The notes under the pieces: generated by a model
The model's input: the letters and a program-made list of their open reading frames with translations, nothing else
What the model was told of the DNA's origin: nothing
The model's database searches: none
Position numbers and translations under genes: made by a program
Shown here: in pieces, positions 4,459 to 50,738 of the stretch
How the letters are laid out: the number at the start of each line of letters is the position of its first letter
Position numbering within the stretch: position 1 is the first letter of the stretch
From: Bdellovibrionales bacterium
GTDB lineage: Bacteria; Bdellovibrionota; Bdellovibrionia; Bdellovibrionales; UBA1609
Reading direction: 5' to 3'
DNA: 64,000 bases
Assembly (NCBI GenBank): GCA_965204055.1
Contig: OZ241967.1
Span: 1,801,362 to 1,865,361, forward strand

Positions 4459-5211
4459 ATGACCAAATTAAGCGTAAATGTCAATAAAATTGCCACTCTC
4501 AGAAACTCCAGAGGGAAAAATCAACCCGATCTAATAGAGGCTGTCCGAAAATTGATTCATTTCGGTGTAACAGGGATTACTGTTCATCCCCGCCCTGATG
4601 GTCGACATATTCTTTATAAAGATGTTTTACAGATTAAAAAATGCTTAAAAAAACACCAAAAAGTGGAGTTAAATGTGGAAGGTTACCCCAGCCAGAAATT
4701 TATGACTTTAATAGAGGAGGTAAAGCCTGCTCAATGCACTTTGGTTCCAGATGCTCCGTCTGATCTGACTTCTAATGCGGGTTGGAAAATTCAAAAAAAC
4801 CGGGCTTTATTAACCCACACTCTTAAAAGCTTACAAAAAAATAAAATCCGATCTTCTTTGTTTATAGATCCTTTTTCTCTGACAAAAAAAGAGGAAAAAG
4901 GATTGGTTCAGCTTAGTCCTGATAGGGCAGAGCTTTACACAGAGGCTTATGCAGACGCCTTCTTCACCCTCAAAAAAAGCACTATAACCCAAACTTATAT
5001 TTCCACTGCAAAAAAGCTAATAGCTTATGGAATAGAATTAAACGCTGGGCACGATTTAAACCTTAACAACCTGGCTTTTCTTTTAAAAAAAATTCCTGAG
5101 ATTAAAGAAGTCTCCATTGGGCATGCTTTAATTTGCGAATCCCTTTACCAGGGATTAAAAACAGTAGTGCAAAAATATTTAAAAATTTGCCAAGCCACCC
5201 GGAGCACTTAA
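4459..5211 (+). CDS. pdxJ: Pyridoxine 5'-phosphate synthase
   Basis: LSVNVNKIATLRN, GITVHPRPDGRHI, NAGHDLN, EVSIGHALI. Confidence 0.95.
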   Translation: MTKLSVNVNKIATLRNSRGKNQPDLIEAVRKLIHFGVTGITVHPRPDGRHILYKDVLQIKKCLKKHQKVELNVEGYPSQKFMTLIEEVKPAQCTLVPDAPSDLTSNAGWKIQKNRALLTHTLKSLQKNKIRSSLFIDPFSLTKKEEKGLVQLSPDRAELYTEAYADAFFTLKKSTITQTYISTAKKLIAYGIELNAGHDLNLNNLAFLLKKIPEIKEVSIGHALICESLYQGLKTVVQKYLKICQATRST

Positions 5212-5233
5212 TTTCTGGGAAATAACAAAGGAT

Positions 5234-5458
5234 TTATTTACTTAAAAGCTTATCCAGCTTGGTATTTACTTCTTCAAACTTGTCATTTACTTCTTCAAAC
5301 TTGTCATTTACTTCTGTTTTAAATTGATTCATCTCTTTTTCTATCCGCGCTTGATTTTCCTTTACTGGATTCAAAAGCCAATTAAAAATCACACTCAAAA
5401 CAGTAAGAACAGCACAAACCGCTACAACAGTCATTAAAAGGGCTTGTAAAATATCCAT
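5234..5458 (-). CDS. Small TM + coiled-coil protein with 21-bp heptad tandem repeat (Bdr/DUF1640-like)
   Basis: N-terminal TM helix; EVNDKFE heptad repeated, encoded by tandem ttacttcttcaaacttgtcat units. Confidence 0.65.
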   Translation of the reverse strand: MDILQALLMTVVAVCAVLTVLSVIFNWLLNPVKENQARIEKEMNQFKTEVNDKFEEVNDKFEEVNTKLDKLLSK

Positions 5459-6519
5459 AATTACCCCTTTTGTTTAAAAAAATTTAAAAGCTGTTTAAAG
5501 CTATTAAATAAAACCCCTGTGCAAAGAATAAAAACAGTAATGGCGGGGAGTATTTTTTAAAAAACTTTCACCAGTGTATCACAACCTTTTTCCTTTTGCA
5601 AAAATAATCAAGCGGGGATTTTTAAAAGCGATTTTAGGGGGGTAAGCGATTACTACCTCTTTTCGGGAAAATCCTCAGAAAAGCTGTAAAACTGGATAAA
5701 AACCGGATTTTTCCGGCGCGGAAAAAATGAGAGGACCAGCACGCGATCGACCGGGGAGCTATTTCAAAACATCCCGTAAGGCACTATAAGTTATTAGCAT
5801 AGTTTACAATTTTATCATTCCACTTAAAAATCGCTTTTATTTTCATAATTTTTGGTCTTTCTATACAAAAATCACTACAAAAACAAGTTTGTTTGTTATC
5901 TGCCCCACAATCTTTTTTATTGGTTTTGATCTCTATATGGCCACTTGGGCTATCTGTGTCCATGACTATAATCGCACCCTCTGGAATGCTCTCTGGATTT
6001 TTTTTGTATTTTTCGTCAAGTGGGATTCTTTCAAATAAAGGTACGTCCTCCATTCTATTCCCATCTTTTATGATAGGAAAATTAAGTAATGCTTCATTTG
6101 TTCTTTTAGTGTGGTTATTGCAATTTTCTCTTACAGAGCTGTCTGTTATATCGTCTTTTGAAAAAGGCTGGTCTTTGTATTTGCCATCTAAGTTAAGGGC
6201 ACAGTAAGCATGTTCAAAAACAAAGCTATGTTGACAAATATTATATTTTCCTTTATCCCACTGTTTTAAACATTGTTTCCGATCTCTGGCAGTGGTGTTT
6301 GTATTAATGGCGTTTTCTTTACAGTGAATAGCAAGCTTATTATGAATAGTGTTCATAATAGCCCCCAAGACATGGCGCGCACACCATCCTGTGTCTTTTG
6401 CTGGGTTGTCCTCGCATTTTGATATAGGATGGGGGGTTTGATCTTTCTCTACTTCTCTCAAACATCCTCTTATACAGCCACCATTTGGCCCACACTCACA
6501 CTTAGAATTATCATAAATA

Positions 6520-17887: not shown

Positions 17888-18574
17888 TCACCGGCCCCCT
17901 GTTCTACCACCTTCAGAGTTGTCTATATCTTTGTTTTCCAGCTCAGCTGTTCCTATTTCTGCGGTTTCACGGGCTGAACCTCCGTAATATAACATTACAT
18001 CTAAAATACCATATCCCCCAGCGGGATTAGTGGATGGACTTCTCAAAATAATAGAACCTGTATTGGTGCCTGTAAAACGCACATGAAACCCCTCATAATC
18101 ATTCCAATATTTTGCTGTTCCTTTTAGAATAATAGGAGATAAAAAATTTACTGTAAAACCACAAGCTCCTAAATAACCTTGAAAAAATGATCCACGACTC
18201 CCATTATAATAAGTTTTAATGGTCAAAGTGGCTTTAGAGGGAAATTCCTCTTTTTCAAACTGAATTTTTAAATCAGCTTTAGAATCAAAATTTTTACAAG
18301 AATACGGACCAATATAATGTGTGCAAGGGTCACATCTTCTGCTGTCTCTTAAAAAACTTCTATATTTGCCCGCATTTGTAAAATCTAAAGAACCAGACCA
18401 TATTAAAGAATTATTATCCACCGAACTTTCTTCCGTCTTAACTGGTTTAGCAGACTTAGTGGGAGTGGTTTGATTGGTGTTTTTGTTCGGCTTTTCATCT
18501 AAATGGCAAGCCATTAAAAAAAGCACCGCACAACACAATAAAGAACAATAAAGAAAGTGTTTTAATATTTGCAT
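17888..18574 (-). CDS. Hypothetical lipoprotein
   Basis: LMAC lipobox; Cys pairs. Confidence 0.75.
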   Translation of the reverse strand: MQILKHFLYCSLLCCAVLFLMACHLDEKPNKNTNQTTPTKSAKPVKTEESSVDNNSLIWSGSLDFTNAGKYRSFLRDSRRCDPCTHYIGPYSCKNFDSKADLKIQFEKEEFPSKATLTIKTYYNGSRGSFFQGYLGACGFTVNFLSPIILKGTAKYWNDYEGFHVRFTGTNTGSIILRSPSTNPAGGYGILDVMLYYGGSARETAEIGTAELENKDIDNSEGGRTGGR

Positions 18575-18756: not shown

Positions 18757-18954
18757 GGGCTAAATTGTCGCTTAAAAAACCCGTTTTTAGCACCTCATAA
18801 TATTAAATGGCCTATTTATGGGCTAAATTGTTGCTTAAAAAAACCTGTTTTTAGCATCTCACAATATTAAATGGCCGGTTTAAAGGCTAAATTGTCGCTT
18901 AAAAAGCCAATTTTTGGACTTTCTGCTTTATTAAATTCATTGAATATGTTATAA
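18757..18954 (+). repeat. 63/64-bp tandem repeat block, left copy of the direct repeat around the NYN gene
   Basis: ggctaaattgtcgcttaaaaa at 18758, 18821 and 18885; the tail to gaatatgttataa recurs at 19800-19933. Confidence 0.9.
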
Positions 18955-19052
18955 AATAGACTATATCTAACAGTTTTTTCTGAAAAATATTTAAAAAATA
19001 TATTTTTACTATTGATTACCACAACAAATATCCGATATATGTTAGTGTATCT

Positions 19053-19113
19053 ATCTCTTGACAGTAAGCTATCCCACTAATAGAGTGATATGCCAAACTC
19101 AAGAGATTTTTTT
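19053..19113 (+). promoter_or_regulatory. Structured leader hairpin + U-tract before NYN gene 1 (candidate ncRNA/attenuator)
   Basis: Outer stem atctcttga/tcaagagat, inner gc-tat-cact/agtg-ata-gc, T run, then ATG; second copy at 20352. Confidence 0.65.
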
Positions 19114-19806
19114 ATGATTAAAACTGCAATCCTTGTTGATGGTTCTTTCTTTATAAAAAGATATAGAAAACTATATAAGAAAGATAATCGTAATCCTGAA
19201 AAAGTTGCTCATTTTTTATATACTATATGCCACAAACATTTAGTAAATAAAAAACCCATAGAACATTATGAATCAGAACATCAAGACAATTTATATCGGA
19301 TTTTTTACTATGATTGTCATCCACTACAATTCAAAATTCATCACCCTATTACAAAAAAACTTATAGATTTCTCAAAAACGGAGGAATATAATTTTCGTAA
19401 AAACTTTTTTGAACAACTAAAGAAAAAACGAAAAGTAGCTCTTAGGTTAGGACAACTCACAACTTATAAAAAATGGAAGATCTCATCTGATAGTTTAAAA
19501 GTTTTGTTAAAAAAAGAGATTACTGTTGAAAGCCTTACAGAGAAAGAGGTTAGTTTAGATGTTGTTCAGAAGGGCACAGACATTAAAATAGGAATTGATA
19601 TTGCTTCTTTAGCTTTAAAAAAACAAGTTGGTAGAATTATTTTAATTTCAGGTGATAGTGATTTTGTGCCAGCGGCTAAATTGGCCAGACGAGAAGGTAT
19701 TGATTTTATATTAGATCCTTTATGGCAACCTATCAGCCCTTCATTATATGAACATATTGATGGACTGCGTTCCGTTATTAAGAAACCAGATTATAAAAAG
19801 GGCTAA
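19114..19806 (+). CDS. NYN-domain (LabA/DUF88, PIN-like) ribonuclease 1
   Basis: AILVDGSF, QKGTDIKIGIDI, ISGDSDFVP; ATG at 19114 preferred over the track start 19090, which lies inside the hairpin. Confidence 0.9.
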   Translation: MIKTAILVDGSFFIKRYRKLYKKDNRNPEKVAHFLYTICHKHLVNKKPIEHYESEHQDNLYRIFYYDCHPLQFKIHHPITKKLIDFSKTEEYNFRKNFFEQLKKKRKVALRLGQLTTYKKWKISSDSLKVLLKKEITVESLTEKEVSLDVVQKGTDIKIGIDIASLALKKQVGRIILISGDSDFVPAAKLARREGIDFILDPLWQPISPSLYEHIDGLRSVIKKPDYKKG

Positions 19807-19933
19807 ATTGTCGCTTAAAAAACCCGTTTTTAGCACCTCATAATATTAAATAGCCTATTTATGGGCTAAATTGTCGCTTAAAAAGCCAATTTTTGGACTT
19901 TCTGCTTTATTAAATTCATTGAATATGTTATAA
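19800..19933 (+). repeat. 134-bp right copy of the direct repeat; supplies the NYN stop codon and the probable ssrA promoter
   Basis: Near-identical to unit 1 plus the tail of 18757-18954. Confidence 0.9.
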
Positions 19934-19945
19934 GTAGGGAAAATC

Positions 19946-20301
19946 GGGGGCGAGTGGCTTTGACGCAGGCCATGAAGCTTCAGGAGCATACAGAGGCACA
20001 TGGGGACCTCTTTAAAAACATGTATAAAAACTAATTGGCAACTTTTTTCCAGTTGCTCTTGCCGCTTAATTTAAACAAGTGGCCGTTGACTGCCCTTTTG
20101 ACGATGAAGGGTGGAAGGCGTTGATTGAATCGTCTCGGCTTTAGACTGCTTTATCAGGGTAAAAAGCTTAAATTTACTGGTAAAAACCCGATAGATTGTG
20201 TTGGTGCCAGTTTATCGGTACTTTTTGCATCAACTAAGTATGTAGCTTGCCTGAATGTGGATGATTTGCGGACACGAGTTCGACTCTCGTCGCCTCCACC
20301 A
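19946..20301 (+). ncRNA. ssrA: tmRNA, tag peptide (A)GNFFPVALAA
   Basis: 5' GGGGGCG pairs with 3' CGCCTCC-ACCA; T-arm gagttcgactctc; internal ggc aac ttt ttt cca gtt gct ctt gcc gct taa. Confidence 0.93.
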
Positions 20302-20308
20302 TTTGCTT

Positions 20309-20332
20309 GCACAAGCCGATTTAATCTTGTGC
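20309..20332 (+). terminator. Hairpin after tmRNA
   Basis: gcacaag-N10-cttgtgc followed by an AT-rich run. Confidence 0.5.
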
Positions 20333-20351
20333 TTATATATTGTTGATGTAT

Positions 20352-20419
20352 ATCTCTTGACAGTCAAGCTATCCCACTAATAGAGTGATATGCTGAACTC
20401 AAGAGATTTTTTCCTGATT
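20352..20419 (+). repeat. Orphan second copy of the NYN-1 leader hairpin
   Basis: Near-identical to 19053-19119; start ATG ATT AA appears as CTG ATT AA and then diverges. Confidence 0.9.
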
Positions 20420-20464
20420 AAGTGTATTGGATATGTTATAAAAAATTTAAATATTTATATTATT

Positions 20465-21313
20465 ATGTCCCGCTTTCTTTTTTTTAAACCTTTTTTCGCC
20501 CTCATTGTCTTTTTGATCATAATAGCTGGCTGTAGTATGTCGGGACAAACTAACAGCACAGGACCTTCAGAAAATACAGTGGATATTTTTATAGCACCAA
20601 CGGGAGTACAACCACTCATTTTTTTAAACGAAGGGGGAGAGAGAATATGCAGACGAGGCATCCCAGATGAAACTATTTACGGCTTGGATCCAGAGGAAAA
20701 AGTAGACTCAGAAGAAGATAACGAAGAGGAAACACAGGAAGAAGATGACTCTTCCAGGAGTGCTCCCATTCCACCAATAAAAGTAGATAAAAATTGGTTT
20801 AAAATGGGCCTGGTGATAGTAAACAAATCAACAATCTATTGGCTTGTAGTAACTGATTTACAATTCAAGATAGAGGCTACTTGGGGTGATGAAACTTTAA
20901 AAGCAACAGACAATATTGGATCTGGATACTGTGGATCCAGCCCTCTTTATATTGTGCGTCCCACCCCTAAAAATGCTAAAAACTCTTACTCAGGAGATCA
21001 GTACGAACCTCTTAAGAAAGATTATGTAAACAATCTTACCTTATTTATCAGTGGAGTGCCCATTCCTGAAGGTCCCCCAACTTACAAAGAAAGGGAGAAT
21101 GATGCCAAATCTGCCGTGCAATCCACACGCCAGGAAGGGCAGGACGCCACCCAAAATGACCAAACAGAAGAAGAGGAATTTGTGCTTACATCTCTTCCTC
21201 CTTACAGGGTGCAAATGGTTGTACATGGTTACTGGGTTGACAAAAGCCGAAATACTGTAGCTAATTTCCAAAAATTAGTTCGTTTTTCGCTATCTTCTCA
21301 ATTTCTTTATTAA
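20465..21313 (+). CDS. Hypothetical lipoprotein with acidic linkers
   Basis: MSRFLFFKP...IIAGC lipobox; start 20465 preferred over 20390, which lies in the leader copy. Confidence 0.8.
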   Translation: MSRFLFFKPFFALIVFLIIIAGCSMSGQTNSTGPSENTVDIFIAPTGVQPLIFLNEGGERICRRGIPDETIYGLDPEEKVDSEEDNEEETQEEDDSSRSAPIPPIKVDKNWFKMGLVIVNKSTIYWLVVTDLQFKIEATWGDETLKATDNIGSGYCGSSPLYIVRPTPKNAKNSYSGDQYEPLKKDYVNNLTLFISGVPIPEGPPTYKERENDAKSAVQSTRQEGQDATQNDQTEEEEFVLTSLPPYRVQMVVHGYWVDKSRNTVANFQKLVRFSLSSQFLY

Positions 21314-22473: not shown

Positions 22474-22574
22474 TTGACCCTATTCAATAACTATTGTAAC
22501 CTGTTTAGGAACCGCCCCTGCTTATTCGGGCAGGGCGCAAGGCTGTGGCTTACGGCTACAGCCTTTGCTTTTTT
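22474..22574 (+). promoter_or_regulatory. sigma70-like promoter + GC-rich double-hairpin leader + U-tract before NYN gene 2
   Basis: TTGACC-17-TAACCT (22474-22502); hairpins cgcccctgc/gcagggcg and gcaaggctgtggc/gctacagcctttgc, then T6. Confidence 0.65.
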
Positions 22575-22586
22575 ATCAGGTGTCTC

Positions 22587-23210
22587 TTGAAAACGATTGT
22601 TTACATAGATGGATTTAATCTTTATTATGGATGTTTAAAAGGCTCCTCTTATAAATGGCTCAATTTATTGAAGTTATCCAAACTTTTATTACCAAAGCAC
22701 AATATTTCAAAGATCAAGTATTTTACCGCTAAAGTGTCGCCTCAGCCCTATGATCCGGATTGCCATAAAAGACAATACACCTATATACGCGCTCTGAAAT
22801 CTCTGGAATGTTGCGAGATTCATTATGGATTTTACCTGTCAAACATTAAAAAAGTGCCACTTGCGCAACCCATCGCCGGAAAAAAATTTACAGACATTAT
22901 TCATACTGAGGAAAAAGGCTCTGATGTGAATTTAGCCTCTCACTTATTATTGGATGCCTTTAGAGACAGATATGAAACAGCTGTAGTAATTTCAAATGAT
23001 TCAGATTTTGCCTCAACAGTTCAAATAGTGAGAGATGAATTGAAAAAAAATATAGGGATCATTTCCCCTTATAAAAGGCCGGCAAGAGCTTTGCAAAACA
23101 AAGCGACTTTTTATAAAAAAATCAGGACAGGCGTTCTTCAAGCTACCCAATTTCCGGCGATTATCACTCTTGCCAATGGAGAAACCATACACAAACCGTC
23201 TGATTGGTAA
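22587..23210 (+). CDS. NYN-domain ribonuclease 2
   Basis: VYIDGFNLYYG, EEKGSDVNLA, VISNDSDF; TTG start at 22587 with aggt RBS (the track start 22545 lies in the hairpin). Confidence 0.9.
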   Translation: MKTIVYIDGFNLYYGCLKGSSYKWLNLLKLSKLLLPKHNISKIKYFTAKVSPQPYDPDCHKRQYTYIRALKSLECCEIHYGFYLSNIKKVPLAQPIAGKKFTDIIHTEEKGSDVNLASHLLLDAFRDRYETAVVISNDSDFASTVQIVRDELKKNIGIISPYKRPARALQNKATFYKKIRTGVLQATQFPAIITLANGETIHKPSDW

Positions 23211-24631: not shown

Positions 24632-27274
24632 TTAAGGTTTTCTTTTCTCTAAGGACAAAATTCTTTTTTCTCCTTCTTTTATATATTCTGTGTGTTTGTC
24701 CCATAGAGGAATTGGAAGATTTTTTATATCGAAATTATTTTCTTCAATATATTGTTTGTATTTTTTAGATAAAAATAACCCTATAATATACAGAAAAACC
24801 TCCTGTTGAGAATGAAATCGTGTTGTTTTATTCTTCAACAATAGATGACATTTTATATTGATATTTTTTGCTGAAACAAATCTTGTTCCTGAACCTCCCG
24901 GTTTAAAATAATCTTTGGAAATAGGTTTATTTATTAAATCCACCTCAAATCTCCTTTTTCTCATACACCAACAAAGAGCTAAGTTATTATTCTTTAAATT
25001 TTCTCCCCATACTTCAAAGTGGTTTTGTGTTAACCTGTCTGACAAAATTTTTTCTGAATAAAAATATTTATTTTCATCTTTTCTGTAGCCGACTAAGCAT
25101 ATTTTTTCTTTATCAAATTTTAAACTCGCTGTTGCTTCGTTTTTGATTTTCTTTTTTAAGTCGAGGGAAAGTTTAATTTTTGGATTATCAGGATTTTTCT
25201 TTAAATCCTTTATCAAAAACTTTATTCTTTTCTTTAGTGCCTCTTTATTGGAGTCATAAACATCTTTGTCCCTGTTAGTCACAATTCCAAGAAAAGATTT
25301 TTCAAAAAGATCATTAATAGACAATCCTTCAAAAGGTGTTTCTTGGTTCAACCATTGATATCTTTTATTAGGAGTGATTACTTTAAATGGATATTGGTTT
25401 GGATTTTTATAGTTTGCTAAAAAAGTTTTTTTCTTTCCATTGTTTTCTTGATCAATAAAAGAATTATTTAGTGCTGTTAATTTATAAGATTTTTTATCTC
25501 CTTCCAGATGTTCTGATAATTTTATATACTTAATTTTTGCTTTTTTTTCAGTTCCTGACTTAACCAGAAAAACAATGGAAACCCCGGCTTGAATATCAAA
25601 TACATTGGAATCCTGCGGGTCTCCTGTTCTTATATTGCCCCCTAGATCTAAAATATAAATATGATCAAATTCTTGCTCTAAACAGTGTCTTACCCCTTTG
25701 CCACTGTCTGCATCCAAAAAAGATCGATTTACCACAAAAGATATAATACCTTGATTTTGTATTCTGTCTGTCGCCCATCTCAAAAAATAGATATATTTGT
25801 CTTGTGATAGTTTTTCTTTTTTTGACTTAATATGCCCATAAGTTTCCTTGATTCTTTGTTTCAGCTCAGGGTAATTTTTATTTGGATTGCCATCATCAAA
25901 TCTTTTCTGGTGCTGGTTGTATGGAGGATTCCCTAAAACTATCTGAATGTCTTTTTCATTTTGCTTTTTAACTCTTTTTTGATTCTCTGAAAAAGCATAA
26001 CCCTGAAAACTCATTTGACCTTTTAAAATACCAGAATTTTGCAGACTGTCCATAAGAACAAGGTTTGGAAAATGCTCATTATTGTTTGTCAATTTCTCAT
26101 AAGTGTATTCAATACTTAAATTCGCTACATAGTAAGGCAAAACAGAAATTTCATTGGCATGGATTTCATTCATATACTTATATTTGAGTGTCCGTTTGTC
26201 TGACTGATGGTAAATATATTCAATAAGTTCTGTGACAAAAGTTCCTGTTCCCGTCGCCGGATCCAGTATATGAACATTTTTATCTTTCAACTCTTTGTTA
26301 AAATGCTTTTTTAAAACCTGATTTGTGGATTGAACTATAAACTTAACAATCTCATTTGGTGTATATATAATACCCAGTCTGTCCGCTACTTTTTGATTGT
26401 AGGAATTATAAAAATCCTGATATATATTTTTAAGAAACAGTTGTCGCTCATTTAGGTCAATTATATTGGATCCATAGCTTGTTATAGGAGCCATATATGG
26501 CTTGATTTTTCTTAGTATTGCTCTCTTTTTTGCTCCAAGAAATTTCTTCTCTATGTCACTTATAGCGGCTGATATGTTGTTGGTTTTGTGATACTGTTGC
26601 TCATCAAAGACTTTTAAAAAAAATTGCTCTGTCAAAATATGTTGAATAAGCCAATCTTCTACATTCTCTCTTTTAAAATAAGGGTTAATAAACTTCTGAC
26701 ATTCTGAAACAAGATCATTAGTTTTTTTTATATATTCTTGATTTTCATTCATTTTCACTAACTCTTGTCTGATCTCTTTTGCAAGTGCCGGTAAGTTTTT
26801 ATTAAATTGTTTTTGAGCACTATAAAAACTTCTTTTCTCAGGAGATTCATAATTGAAAAATAGAGCTAAAAGCTCACTTAAAGGTTCTGGATTATCCCAC
26901 ATTCCTGATATTTCTTTTACAGGACGCTTGTCTTGATAAAGAATACAAGAATCTGAATTTTCAAAAATGGTGTTTTTTATCGGATAATTGTTGTTAATTT
27001 TTGTATTTATCGCTTTTTTTAAGTTTGTGGCAGGAGATTTAGCTTCATAATATCCATGAACTGTATAAAGATTTTTTATTGTAGCATCCGGTTTTTTGTT
27101 GTTGTTCAGTCTATCCTCAGCAATGACCCATAGGTTTTTATGAGATCCCGCTCTATTCAAAAGCTCTATAAAAACAGGTCTTAACGATTCTTCCGTGTTA
27201 TTGCTACTGCGTATTCGTCGTATTCTGGGCTTTAAATCAGAAATGTATTGGCTGATAATTTGTGTATTAAACAT
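24632..27274 (-). CDS. Type IIG/ISP-like single-chain restriction-modification enzyme (N6-adenine MTase)
   Basis: N-terminal KPD...YYEAK nuclease motif, ILDPATGTGTF, VLGNPPY, C-terminal TRD-like region. Confidence 0.85.
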   Translation of the reverse strand: MFNTQIISQYISDLKPRIRRIRSSNNTEESLRPVFIELLNRAGSHKNLWVIAEDRLNNNKKPDATIKNLYTVHGYYEAKSPATNLKKAINTKINNNYPIKNTIFENSDSCILYQDKRPVKEISGMWDNPEPLSELLALFFNYESPEKRSFYSAQKQFNKNLPALAKEIRQELVKMNENQEYIKKTNDLVSECQKFINPYFKRENVEDWLIQHILTEQFFLKVFDEQQYHKTNNISAAISDIEKKFLGAKKRAILRKIKPYMAPITSYGSNIIDLNERQLFLKNIYQDFYNSYNQKVADRLGIIYTPNEIVKFIVQSTNQVLKKHFNKELKDKNVHILDPATGTGTFVTELIEYIYHQSDKRTLKYKYMNEIHANEISVLPYYVANLSIEYTYEKLTNNNEHFPNLVLMDSLQNSGILKGQMSFQGYAFSENQKRVKKQNEKDIQIVLGNPPYNQHQKRFDDGNPNKNYPELKQRIKETYGHIKSKKEKLSQDKYIYFLRWATDRIQNQGIISFVVNRSFLDADSGKGVRHCLEQEFDHIYILDLGGNIRTGDPQDSNVFDIQAGVSIVFLVKSGTEKKAKIKYIKLSEHLEGDKKSYKLTALNNSFIDQENNGKKKTFLANYKNPNQYPFKVITPNKRYQWLNQETPFEGLSINDLFEKSFLGIVTNRDKDVYDSNKEALKKRIKFLIKDLKKNPDNPKIKLSLDLKKKIKNEATASLKFDKEKICLVGYRKDENKYFYSEKILSDRLTQNHFEVWGENLKNNNLALCWCMRKRRFEVDLINKPISKDYFKPGGSGTRFVSAKNINIKCHLLLKNKTTRFHSQQEVFLYIIGLFLSKKYKQYIEENNFDIKNLPIPLWDKHTEYIKEGEKRILSLEKRKP

Positions 27275-47037: not shown

Positions 47038-47055
47038 AATATATATTTATAGTTT

Positions 47056-47204
47056 CAGGCAAAGTATCAAATAAGCCTTAAGAGATTAAACCCTTCTTTT
47101 TCGCGGATGATTGTTATTAACCTTCTCAGACAAAGTATCAAATCAACCCGGAGAGATTAAACCCTTCTTTTTCGCGGATGATTGTTATTAACCTTCTCAG
47201 ACAA
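47056..47204. repeat. 71-bp-period tandem duplication upstream of argS
   Basis: gagattaaacccttctttttcgcggatgattgttattaaccttctcagacaaa twice. Confidence 0.9.
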
Positions 47205-47288
47205 AAAATATAAAGAATACTCTTGACTATGAATAATTATAAAGAAAATATTAATCTTCAGTAGCTATATAGTAATTAGTGATAAAGT

Positions 47289-49197: not shown

Positions 49198-49480
49198 CTT
49201 CTCAAAATTACCTCTTTTTGAGAAGATACGACAATACATGTAACAAAAACAAGCATTCTTGAGAAAATGAAAAATATCTGCTTCTCAAAATTACCTTTTT
49301 TTGAGAAGATACGGGAATACATGTAACAAAAACAAACATTTTTGAGAAGATAAAAAAGTATTTACTTCTCAAAATTACGCTTTTCTGAGAAGATAAGACA
49401 TTATATGTAACAAAAACAAACATTTTTGAGAAGATAAAACAACATATACAACAAAAACAAACATTTTTGAGAAGATAAAA
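49198..49480 (+). repeat. 83/84-bp tandem array (3 units + partial) of hairpin-containing repeats directly upstream of the Fic gene
   Basis: cttctcaaaa-N8-ttttgagaag at 49198, 49281 and 49365; tgtaacaaaaacaaacatttttgagaagata sub-unit repeated up to the ATG. Confidence 0.92.
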
Positions 49481-50581: not shown

Positions 50582-50738
50582 AGGTTTTTTTGCAAGAGCC
50601 ACCAACCTATGGATCCACCCTGCCTTCTTTGAAAAACACCCCATGTCTTAGGGTTTTTGTAAGAACCACCAACCTATGGATCCACCCTGCCTTCTTTGAA
50701 AAACATCCCATGTCTTAGGGTTTTTGTAAGAACCACCA
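50582..50738. repeat. 67-bp-period tandem duplication including the epimerase gene 3' end
   Basis: accaacctatggatccaccctgccttctttgaaaaaca at 50601 and 50668; ggtttttgtaagaaccacca three times. Confidence 0.9.

Follow-up and report, generated by a model that had tools for sequence, protein, structure and literature searches.

The window analysed here is a 64,000-nt stretch of a Bdellovibrionales genome (contig OZ241967.1, positions 1,801,362 to 1,865,361), a metagenome-assembled genome (MAG) of 2.31 Mb and 36% G+C on one contig. It contains ssrA, the gene for transfer-messenger RNA (tmRNA), and, upstream of it, a gene for an NYN-domain nuclease. The two genes are interleaved with copies of two other sequences, a block (P) that lies upstream of ssrA and a leader RNA (L) that precedes the NYN gene. 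The order as read is P-L-NYN-P-tmRNA-L-P(relic), and all elements reported in a preliminary description of the locus are present in their places. We regard it as rather probable that a mobile one-gene cassette inserted at ssrA at least twice, and that the locus is the scar of these events and not a functional repeat machine. On this reading it records gene gain and loss by rearrangement, and no new machine is involved. The repeat families were checked with a repeat finder and with blastn against the whole 2.31-Mb genome. The part from the first P block to the second comes from one assembly, while the part comprising tmRNA, the second leader and the relic is also found in an independent assembly, that of a sister genome (contig L043).

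Genes and repeats at the ssrA locus

All features are on the plus strand unless stated otherwise. The tmRNA gene (19946..20301) matches Rfam model RF00023 at 129.9 bits, against a gathering threshold of 47, over model positions 1–374, its full length, and its tag reading frame ends in ...FFPVALAA*. ARAGORN did not call a tmRNA in the region; the Rfam search did call ssrA. On the left lies lipo_up (17888..18574, minus strand), an open reading frame (ORF) for a lipoprotein-like protein that tblastn places beside ssrA in 13 same-genus loci. On the right lies the lipoprotein gene lipo_dn (20465..21313), whose place next to ssrA is likewise conserved among congeners. The order in 14 other congeneric species is lipo_up (-), ssrA (+), lipo_dn (+), orf192 and tRNA-Ala, with only 160–250 bp of space on the 5' side of ssrA, and an NYN gene is found at ssrA in none of 30 relatives. 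The probable native ssrA terminator is a hairpin (GCACAAG..CTTGTGC, then UUAUAUAUU; 20309..20341) with a fold of -8 kcal/mol, and relatives have a terminator hairpin at the same place after the CCA.

Block P occurs twice. The copy next to ssrA, P2 (19800-19935), consists of a 63-bp unit, U1' (19800..19862), and a promoter-proximal unit, B2 (19863..19935). The distal copy, P1 (18757-18956), consists of U1 (18757..18819), which is identical to U1' at 62/63 positions and begins with the 22-nt core GGGCTAAATTGTCGCTTAAAAA; U2 (18820..18883), which is 64 bp long, shares 87.5% identity with U1 and is present only in P1; and B1 (18884..18956), which is identical to B2 over 70 nt. Genus-wide, an extended -10 element (TGnTAnAAk) sits 10–15 nt ahead of the mature tmRNA 5' end, and here it corresponds to TGTTATAAG at 19926-19934 in B2 (TG at 19926-19927, TATAAG at 19929-19934). 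Because this conserved element maps to B2, B is evidently the native ssrA promoter unit and P the ssrA promoter region. B2, which agrees with the sister genome and the genus in position and sequence type, would be the working unit. B1 is evidently a copy of the native unit that retains TGTTATAAA, with its hexamer at 18950-18955. The homology between B1 and B2 stops right after TATAA, at a junction that we call J1. The 63–64-bp units share the 22-nt core with B and have no significant fold (z = 0.3). The core is present in five copies at the locus and in one in the sister genome, and blastn-short found no other copy of P in the 2.31-Mb genome.

A relic of a third P copy (ATTAAGTGTATTGGATATGTTATAA, 20417..20441), with an extended -10, lies 24 nt before the start of lipo_dn. 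It was detected by a 25-mer match scan, as the sole other window within four mismatches of the B 25-mer in 4.6 million positions. It matches the sister's B at 23/25 positions and is closer to that B than to this genome's own. The relic overlaps the second leader copy within the microhomology ATTAA, and it is lacking in relatives outside this pair of genomes.

Between P1 and P2 lies an insert of 0.84 kb, the cassette, which comprises in order its own promoter, the leader and the NYN gene. Its 5' part (18957..19047) holds an upstream element in truncated form (..CTATATCTAA..), a tract rich in A/T and the promoter, TTGATT (19012-19017), 17 nt, ATATAT (19035-19040). The leader copy L1 (19048..19113) is followed by the LabA/DUF88-like NYN gene of 230 aa (19114..19806). 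The protein matches PF01936 at 39 bits (cutoff 24.2, E = 1.5e-9) and carries ..ILVDGSFF.. near its N-terminus and ..SGDSDF.., in keeping with the acidic residues of a PIN-like site. NYN is the sole gene-sized ORF of the insert. The other ORF, of 51 aa on the minus strand, overlaps the insert's 5' edge, and none of the insert's ORFs encodes a recombinase.

The cassette is truncated at either end, having lost part of the upstream element at J1 and the gene's own stop at J2. At J1 the -10 of B1 is joined to the middle of the upstream element (..CTCTATCTAA..), which is longer in contigs L036, L042, L044, L083 and L084 of other genomes. At J2 (about 19799/19800) the NYN gene runs into U1', which supplies its last codon and its stop (GGC TAA; TAA at 19804-19806). 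The protein consequently ends in ...YKKG*, versus ...YKK* in its orthologues. The preliminary description had placed P on both sides of the NYN gene as the supplier of its stop, and had taken the tail of P for a probable promoter, and both claims are borne out by these data. It had also spoken of 134-bp direct repeats. P2 is indeed a contiguous copy of 134 bp, whereas in P1 the same halves are split by the more diverged 64-bp U2.

The cassette itself is widespread. NYN orthologues in related MAGs share 74–89% aa identity with the protein, and the 5' part of the cassette is conserved before orthologues at unrelated sites (L036-L042, L062, L083, L084). About 110 nt upstream of the gene are conserved in all of the related cassettes listed below, with a promoter (TTGAYn-17-TAnnnT), a hairpin with a U-run, and the start codon in this order. 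The site differs in each related Bdellovibrionales genome. The cassette lies among genes of unknown function in L036; in an island with an integrase, DUF3800 and an MmeI-type restriction-modification gene in L037; between carB and carA, on the opposite strand, in L038/L039; between a TonB/TPR operon and ribH in L040; in an array of small ORFs in L041; beside gcvH in L042; and beside ThsB-TIR and caspase-like genes in L084. No significant match to P or U sequence was found beside the cassette in other genomes, the best being z = 3.6 over 22 nt.

Direct repeats also bracket the NYN cassette in L036 (3707-3870 / 5200-5363, about 150 nt, 87%) and L041 (3529-3596 / 4726-4793, 68 nt, 94%). The L036 repeat overlaps an element (..TTTCCCGCTCTATYY..AAATCACAGC..) whose conservation ahead of the cassette extends to L042, L044, L083 and L084. 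Stable-RNA genes occur near the cassette in three contigs: a tRNA-Leu about 100 nt after the NYN stop (L042:2900-2985), a tRNA-Gly about 60 nt after it (L062:3251-3326), and, in a Woeseiaceae MAG, a tmRNA 1.6 kb upstream of the cassette (L056:549-910), where the ORFs between tmRNA and NYN have no Pfam matches. In the present window, a second, unrelated NYN-domain gene (22545-23210; PADLOC candidate HEC-09, 3.6e-46) lies right after tRNA-Ala, and is followed by a gene for an SDH-type ClpP-like protease and an unannotated minus-strand ORF of 880 aa (24632-27274). This stretch at tRNA-Ala, from 22192 onwards, looks like a defence island.

The leader RNA and its orphan copy

L1 is predicted to fold (-14.1 kcal/mol, z = -2.9) with an outer stem of 9 bp, an inner hairpin and, between them, the internal loop CAGUAAG / CCAAAC, which is sarcin-ricin-like (AGUA/GAA); its U7 run directly adjoins the start codon. 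A covariance model of our own, R1, scores L1 at 79.9 bits and the second copy, L2, at 67.4 bits. Neither blastn-short nor a search with the covariance model found L elsewhere in the 2.31-Mb genome. Outside the order, the hairpin is present in Verrucomicrobia, Desulfuromonadales, Woeseiaceae, Bacteroidota, Rhodothermia, Acidaminococcaceae, Bacillota and Desulfovibrionaceae. Covariation extends over at least eight phyla: an alignment of 20 sequences has compensatory changes in 8/8 outer-stem pairs, and 97.5% of its cells are paired; this covariation was reached by 0/500 shuffles, and slid controls were 21–52% paired. The conserved loop strands read CAGUAAG (5') and GCCGAAC (3'). In most leaders the outer stem is followed by a run of U6–U9, 0–40 nt before the start codon, and would thus have the form of an intrinsic terminator. 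There is one hairpin per cassette in 25/25 leaders examined.

Searching an order-wide sample of 301 genomes with R1 yielded nine copies, all in three reduced-genome genera. Five precede NYN genes, two precede DuOB genes (PF22557; PADLOC PDC-M45A, 9e-82), and two are orphans, namely L2 here and one in genome G016. The DuOB gene that follows a promoter and leader is intact in one contig (L088:1501-2310, plus strand) and apparently disrupted in another (L074, minus strand, motif 1501-1567); contig L087 holds a true orphan leader. Since the leader occurs at different sites across genomes, and before DuOB in two of them, we regard L as a portable promoter-leader module of defence-island genes, neither specific to NYN nor a local invention.

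Two candidate signals within the leader were considered and set aside. The first, TTGACA-17-TAGAGT inside L, was rejected as the main promoter, as TTGACA is outer-stem sequence that differs in other phyla. A separate promoter is found upstream of L in all Bdellovibrionales cassettes and, by eye, in the four leaders from other phyla that were checked. The second is a pair of in-frame ATGs, at 19090 (an alternative start of the NYN ORF, MPNSRDFF) and 20390 (MLNSRDFF). They were rejected as start codons, as the ATG belongs to the conserved GAUAUGCC stem/loop; NYN homologues start after the U-run, and the signal peptide of the lipoprotein begins at 20465. With the GAUAUGCC ATGs as starts, gene callers give NYN 238 aa and the lipoprotein 307 aa, extensions that are probably spurious.

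The arrangement has implications for the expression of both genes. With B1, a copy of the strong ssrA promoter would lie 60 nt ahead of the cassette promoter, and both would read toward L1. It is therefore likely that NYN is transcribed from the two promoters, with the leader terminator as a gate. In L1 the single Shine-Dalgarno-like sequence (AAGAGA) forms part of the outer stem, on its 3' strand, and the hairpin probably both ends transcription and masks translation. Expression of NYN would then require that transcription reads through or that the stem opens. Sarcin-ricin-type loops are typical protein-binding platforms. Feedback of NYN on its own leader, or a role of the leader as an RNA antitoxin, is possible. 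A strictly NYN-specific partner is unlikely, as the same leader precedes DuOB genes. ssrA likely retains an intact promoter. An accessory nuclease gene may thus have settled beside a stable-RNA gene of the essential type without disabling it, with a duplicated promoter that serves both and a matched empty allele in a relative.

L2 (20347..20413) was recognised by model R1, by its fold and by its counterpart in the sister genome. It follows the tmRNA 3' end at a distance of 46 nt (20302-20347), with the weak native terminator in between. L1 (19052-19121) and L2 (20351-20421) are 93% identical over 71 nt by blastn, and the homology spans 20335-20421, from the cassette -10 through 8 nt of NYN coding sequence. 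That a leader of the NYN gene recurs after the tmRNA with a dead start, as had been claimed, is confirmed: CTG stands for ATG, and 8 nt of coding sequence are left. Hairpin and U6 run are intact in L2. Its most conserved loop carries a 1-nt insertion in both genomes (AGUA to AGUCA), its 3' loop has two further changes in this genome, and the -35 is missing. An upstream TTGCTT.. aligns with the cassette -35 in appearance, but this is uncertain, and the hairpin there occupies the place of the relatives' ssrA terminator. Given the lesion in the conserved loop and the missing -35, L2 is probably a relic, and at most a back-up terminator behind ssrA. The earlier suggestion of a spare antitoxin-like RNA is weakened by the same two features, and by the occurrence of the leader before DuOB in two relatives. 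The converse of the L2 relic is seen in another species of the genus (G011; L050:2501-3055), where an NYN gene truncated at residue 38 stands without a leader.

The junction between L2 and the P relic lies in ATTAA. As this motif occurs both at NYN codons 2–3 and within B, the junction points to a microhomology deletion of about 0.8 kb.

The empty allele and the history of the locus

In the closest relative found (ENA contig L043), lipo_dn is 95% identical at the aa level, the tmRNA 99.4% and the left intergenic region 99.5%. In order, this contig has lipo_up, a single B unit, tmRNA, the terminator hairpin seen here, the same L2 with CTGATTAAG (5883-5949), the same P relic and lipo_dn. The intergenic distance is 784 bp in L043 and 1,890 bp in this genome, and the extra 1,106 bp are accounted for by U1, U2, B1, the cassette and U1' together. 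Both ends of this indel fall within the 22-nt core. The NYN gene with its P unit can thus be described as a gain/loss polymorphism, in agreement with the proposal of the preliminary description that the unit, bounded by direct repeats, could be present or absent. It had taken relatives with this layout but without L after ssrA as evidence against itself, and the closest relative does have L after ssrA. Its proposed duplication with reciprocal loss is less simple than other paths, since the sister already has L2 with the same deletion junction, and has neither NYN nor the P duplication. Because L043 shares L2 and the identical junction, both are evidently older than the split of the two genomes.

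An assembly artefact, in which two strain haplotypes or collapsed repeats were stitched into a false P-NYN-P order, might be suspected for a metagenome-assembled contig with an empty allele in another sample. We consider this very improbable indeed. The repeats measure only 63–134 bp, far below the length of long reads; the sequences at J1 and J2 are unique; the NYN frame is unbroken and finds its stop in U1'; P1 has a diverged extra unit, which collapse would not make; and the part from tmRNA through L2 to the relic is reproduced in the independent assembly.

The position of the indel ends exactly in cores, together with the five copies of the core here and one in the sister, is also what would be expected if GGGCTAAATTGTCGCTTAAAAA were the attachment site of a site-specific recombinase that moved an integrase-less cassette in trans. 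The cassettes of relatives often lie near tRNA or tmRNA genes (about 100 nt in L042, about 60 nt in L062, 1.6 kb in L056), and that of L037 is in an integrase-bearing island. However, the core and P sequence accompany the cassette in no other genome, and the core is unique to the locus in this one; the one match in a metagenome scan is a chance match on an unrelated contig. The insert has no recombinase, and its ends are truncated rather than defined. Site-specific movement is accordingly a distinctly improbable explanation. Since both ends of the cassette are truncated, an illegitimate insertion would fit better than a site-specific element with defined ends.

P1 and P2 differ at 1/133 positions, versus 6/86 for L1 and L2 (p = 0.016), which favours two events of different age, unless gene conversion homogenises P. 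Both of this genome's B copies differ from the sister's B at 5/83 positions, versus 6/698 in the flanks (Fisher p = 0.003), so the P block and its flanks have had different histories. Import of the whole P-cassette-P allele from a diverged relative by homologous recombination may account for this, and is the history most easily reconciled with the data.

The sequence of events that we propose begins with an older cassette copy, which would have landed just 3' of the ssrA terminator together with a copy of P. The structure of L2 and the relic implies that NYN was once followed by P downstream of ssrA too. One path to this older structure would be an insertion behind the terminator that duplicated P-tmRNA, followed by loss of NYN and the spare ssrA; tandem duplication, taken up below, would be another. 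The older copy would then have lost NYN by deletion between the ATTAA microhomologies, leaving L2 and a 25-nt P relic before the lipoprotein gene. Later, the present cassette would have been inserted within the promoter block, duplicating about 200 bp of target, after which P2 would have lost U2 by slippage between cores. The NYN unit is likely to be deletable again by recombination between the P copies.

An alternative starts from an ancestral P-tmRNA-L-NYN unit that was duplicated in tandem and perhaps expanded by unequal crossing-over. The first unit would have lost its tmRNA and the second its NYN gene, and the sister would later have excised the NYN unit. The periodic layout (P-x-L-NYN, P-tmRNA-L-(deleted NYN), P relic) agrees with this, as does the third P relic behind L2, which implies that NYN was once followed by P there as well. 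L1 and L2 also share derived states, ATC-CCAC and GCCAAAC, that are absent from other cassettes. Recombination between the cores of U1 and B2 would yield the sister's A-B-tmRNA order; it would not yield its exact B sequence, and a recent excision would not leave the sister's B 5/83 off both copies here. The alternative also requires at least five events (one insertion, a step of duplication or triplication, and three or more deletions, which have to remove two spare ssrA copies). The upstream part of the cassette, present with L1, is missing from L2, and P1 and P2 are far more alike than L1 and L2. Tandem duplication with reciprocal loss is therefore possible, but we do not favour it and consider it unlikely.

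The proposed mode of insertion at ssrA has parallels elsewhere in this genome. Self-comparison revealed two IS1634-family elements (transposase NF033559, 4.5e-109 and 7e-113) in at least 11 copies, each copy flanked by perfect direct repeats of 87–551 bp. Outside the window, the 1950-bp type is found at C1:145404-147613, 254795-257659, 470175-472694, 491564-494622, 888663-891143, 965841-968247 and 984613-986807, and the 1972-bp type at C1:43983-46128, 525011-527295 and 1000676-1002940. Long, variable target duplications of 8–514 bp, by an unknown mechanism, have been described for IS1634/IS1549 insertion sequences (IS) (De Palmenaer et al. 2008, PMC2266710). Six toxin–antitoxin (TA) or defence modules that are not IS are likewise flanked by direct repeats of local DNA, of 55–270 bp and without common ends. 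They lie outside the window, at C1:284515-286138, 583869-585886, 666027-667950, 212408-214128, 1293978-1296138 and 531773-533065. The modules comprise a DUF6036 nucleotidyltransferase with a partner; Schlafen AlbA_2 / HATPase_c_4; DUF1828/DUF1829 with a putative ribbon-helix-helix protein, so assigned by reading of its sequence; ParS/MbcA-RES; AAA_21 with DUF4276; and BrnT with a downstream 92-aa ORF, presumed to be BrnA. The NYN cassette, with its P repeats of 134–200 bp, fits this class of repeat-flanked modules, and IS-like inverted repeats were found neither at the ends of the NYN insert nor at those of the six modules. A link to the IS1634 transposase is conjecture.

More speculatively, this lineage of reduced-genome Bdellovibrionales might possess a pathway that pastes promoter-bearing TA and defence cassettes without IS ends into intergenic regions, with target duplications of 55–270 bp, possibly through the long-staggered cleavage of IS1634-family transposases. 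Excision would be reversible and leave tandem footprints of 60–80 bp, such as U1/U2, and the ssrA promoter would be a hot spot. We hold this broader idea to be doubtful. If it is true, the hot spot would give a cassette a strong stable-RNA promoter. The window has further tandem duplications with periods of 64–84 bp, among them those at 47055-47205, 49198-49480 and 50587-50738 (periods of 71, 84 and 67 bp, two to three copies, like U1/U2/B at 18757-18905), and these might be footprints of excised long-duplication insertions.

Several observations weigh against repeated cassette insertion at ssrA. The cassette ends have no similarity to the inverted repeats of the genome's two IS1634-type elements, and the proposal names no enzyme for long-duplication insertion of DNA without IS ends. 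The sister's empty allele may be ancestral or the product of core-by-core excision, and one close relative was compared. The sister genome has neither U1 nor U2, and the proposed history does not account for them. Finally, the identities of 99% for P1/P2 and 89–93% for L1/L2 would also fit one old event followed by gene conversion of P.

Comparison with known systems

The locus shares some features with the genomic islands found at ssrA and tRNA genes: there is an accessory gene at ssrA, direct repeats flank it, the arrangement is polymorphic between close relatives, and the cassette lies beside tRNA genes elsewhere. In contrast to such islands, the repeats here derive from the promoter side and not from the ssrA 3' end, there is no integrase, and a single unit of 0.84 kb with truncated ends is involved. 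With no recombinase ORF in the insert and repeats from the promoter side, the locus does not belong to the integrase-borne ssrA islands. A promoter of its own is atypical for an integron cassette, and the NYN cassette has one.

The likeness to IS1634/IS1549 lies in the duplication of P, which directly abuts the insert and at 134–200 bp is in the 87–551-bp size range of the repeats at this genome's IS1634-family copies. The NYN insert differs in having neither a transposase nor IS-like inverted repeats; only the long target duplication is held in common, and the insert is not an IS1634-family insertion. The comparison nevertheless ties a local oddity to genome-wide long target duplications around IS1634-family elements and TA/defence modules.

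Type III toxin–antitoxin systems such as ToxIN combine a promoter, a structured RNA, an intrinsic terminator and an endoribonuclease-type gene, as the NYN cassette appears to. In both cases the module is small, mobile and found in defence islands, and copies of the RNA outlive the loss of the protein gene. The cassette differs in having a single hairpin with no tandem array, and in a leader that also precedes DuOB. It would thus share the intrinsic terminator of type III systems and lack their tandem-repeat RNA.

The nearest family in Rfam is TEG147 (RF03535), which has in common with L the 9-bp outer stem, a 5' loop with ..AGUA.., the inner hairpin, a 3' loop with ..GAA.., the U-tail and a length of about 60 nt. 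Its internal loop has been classed as sarcin-ricin by JAR3D (PMC13085918). L1 scores 19.6 bits (E = 0.078 in a 111-nt search), against a gathering threshold of 56.1, and falls outside the family; a Bacillota copy upstream of NYN (L060) scores best among the related leaders, at 42.1 bits, also below 56.1. The resemblance, as read from these sequences, is one of fold and loop letters only. Teg147 is listed as a free-standing small RNA of about 60 nt in S. aureus (PMC5826253), whereas L1 is the 5' leader of NYN, or in relatives of DuOB. Viewed more broadly, the NYN leader would be a portable RNA module with a sarcin-ricin-like loop that crosses phyla, and gives Teg147-like RNAs a testable genomic context.

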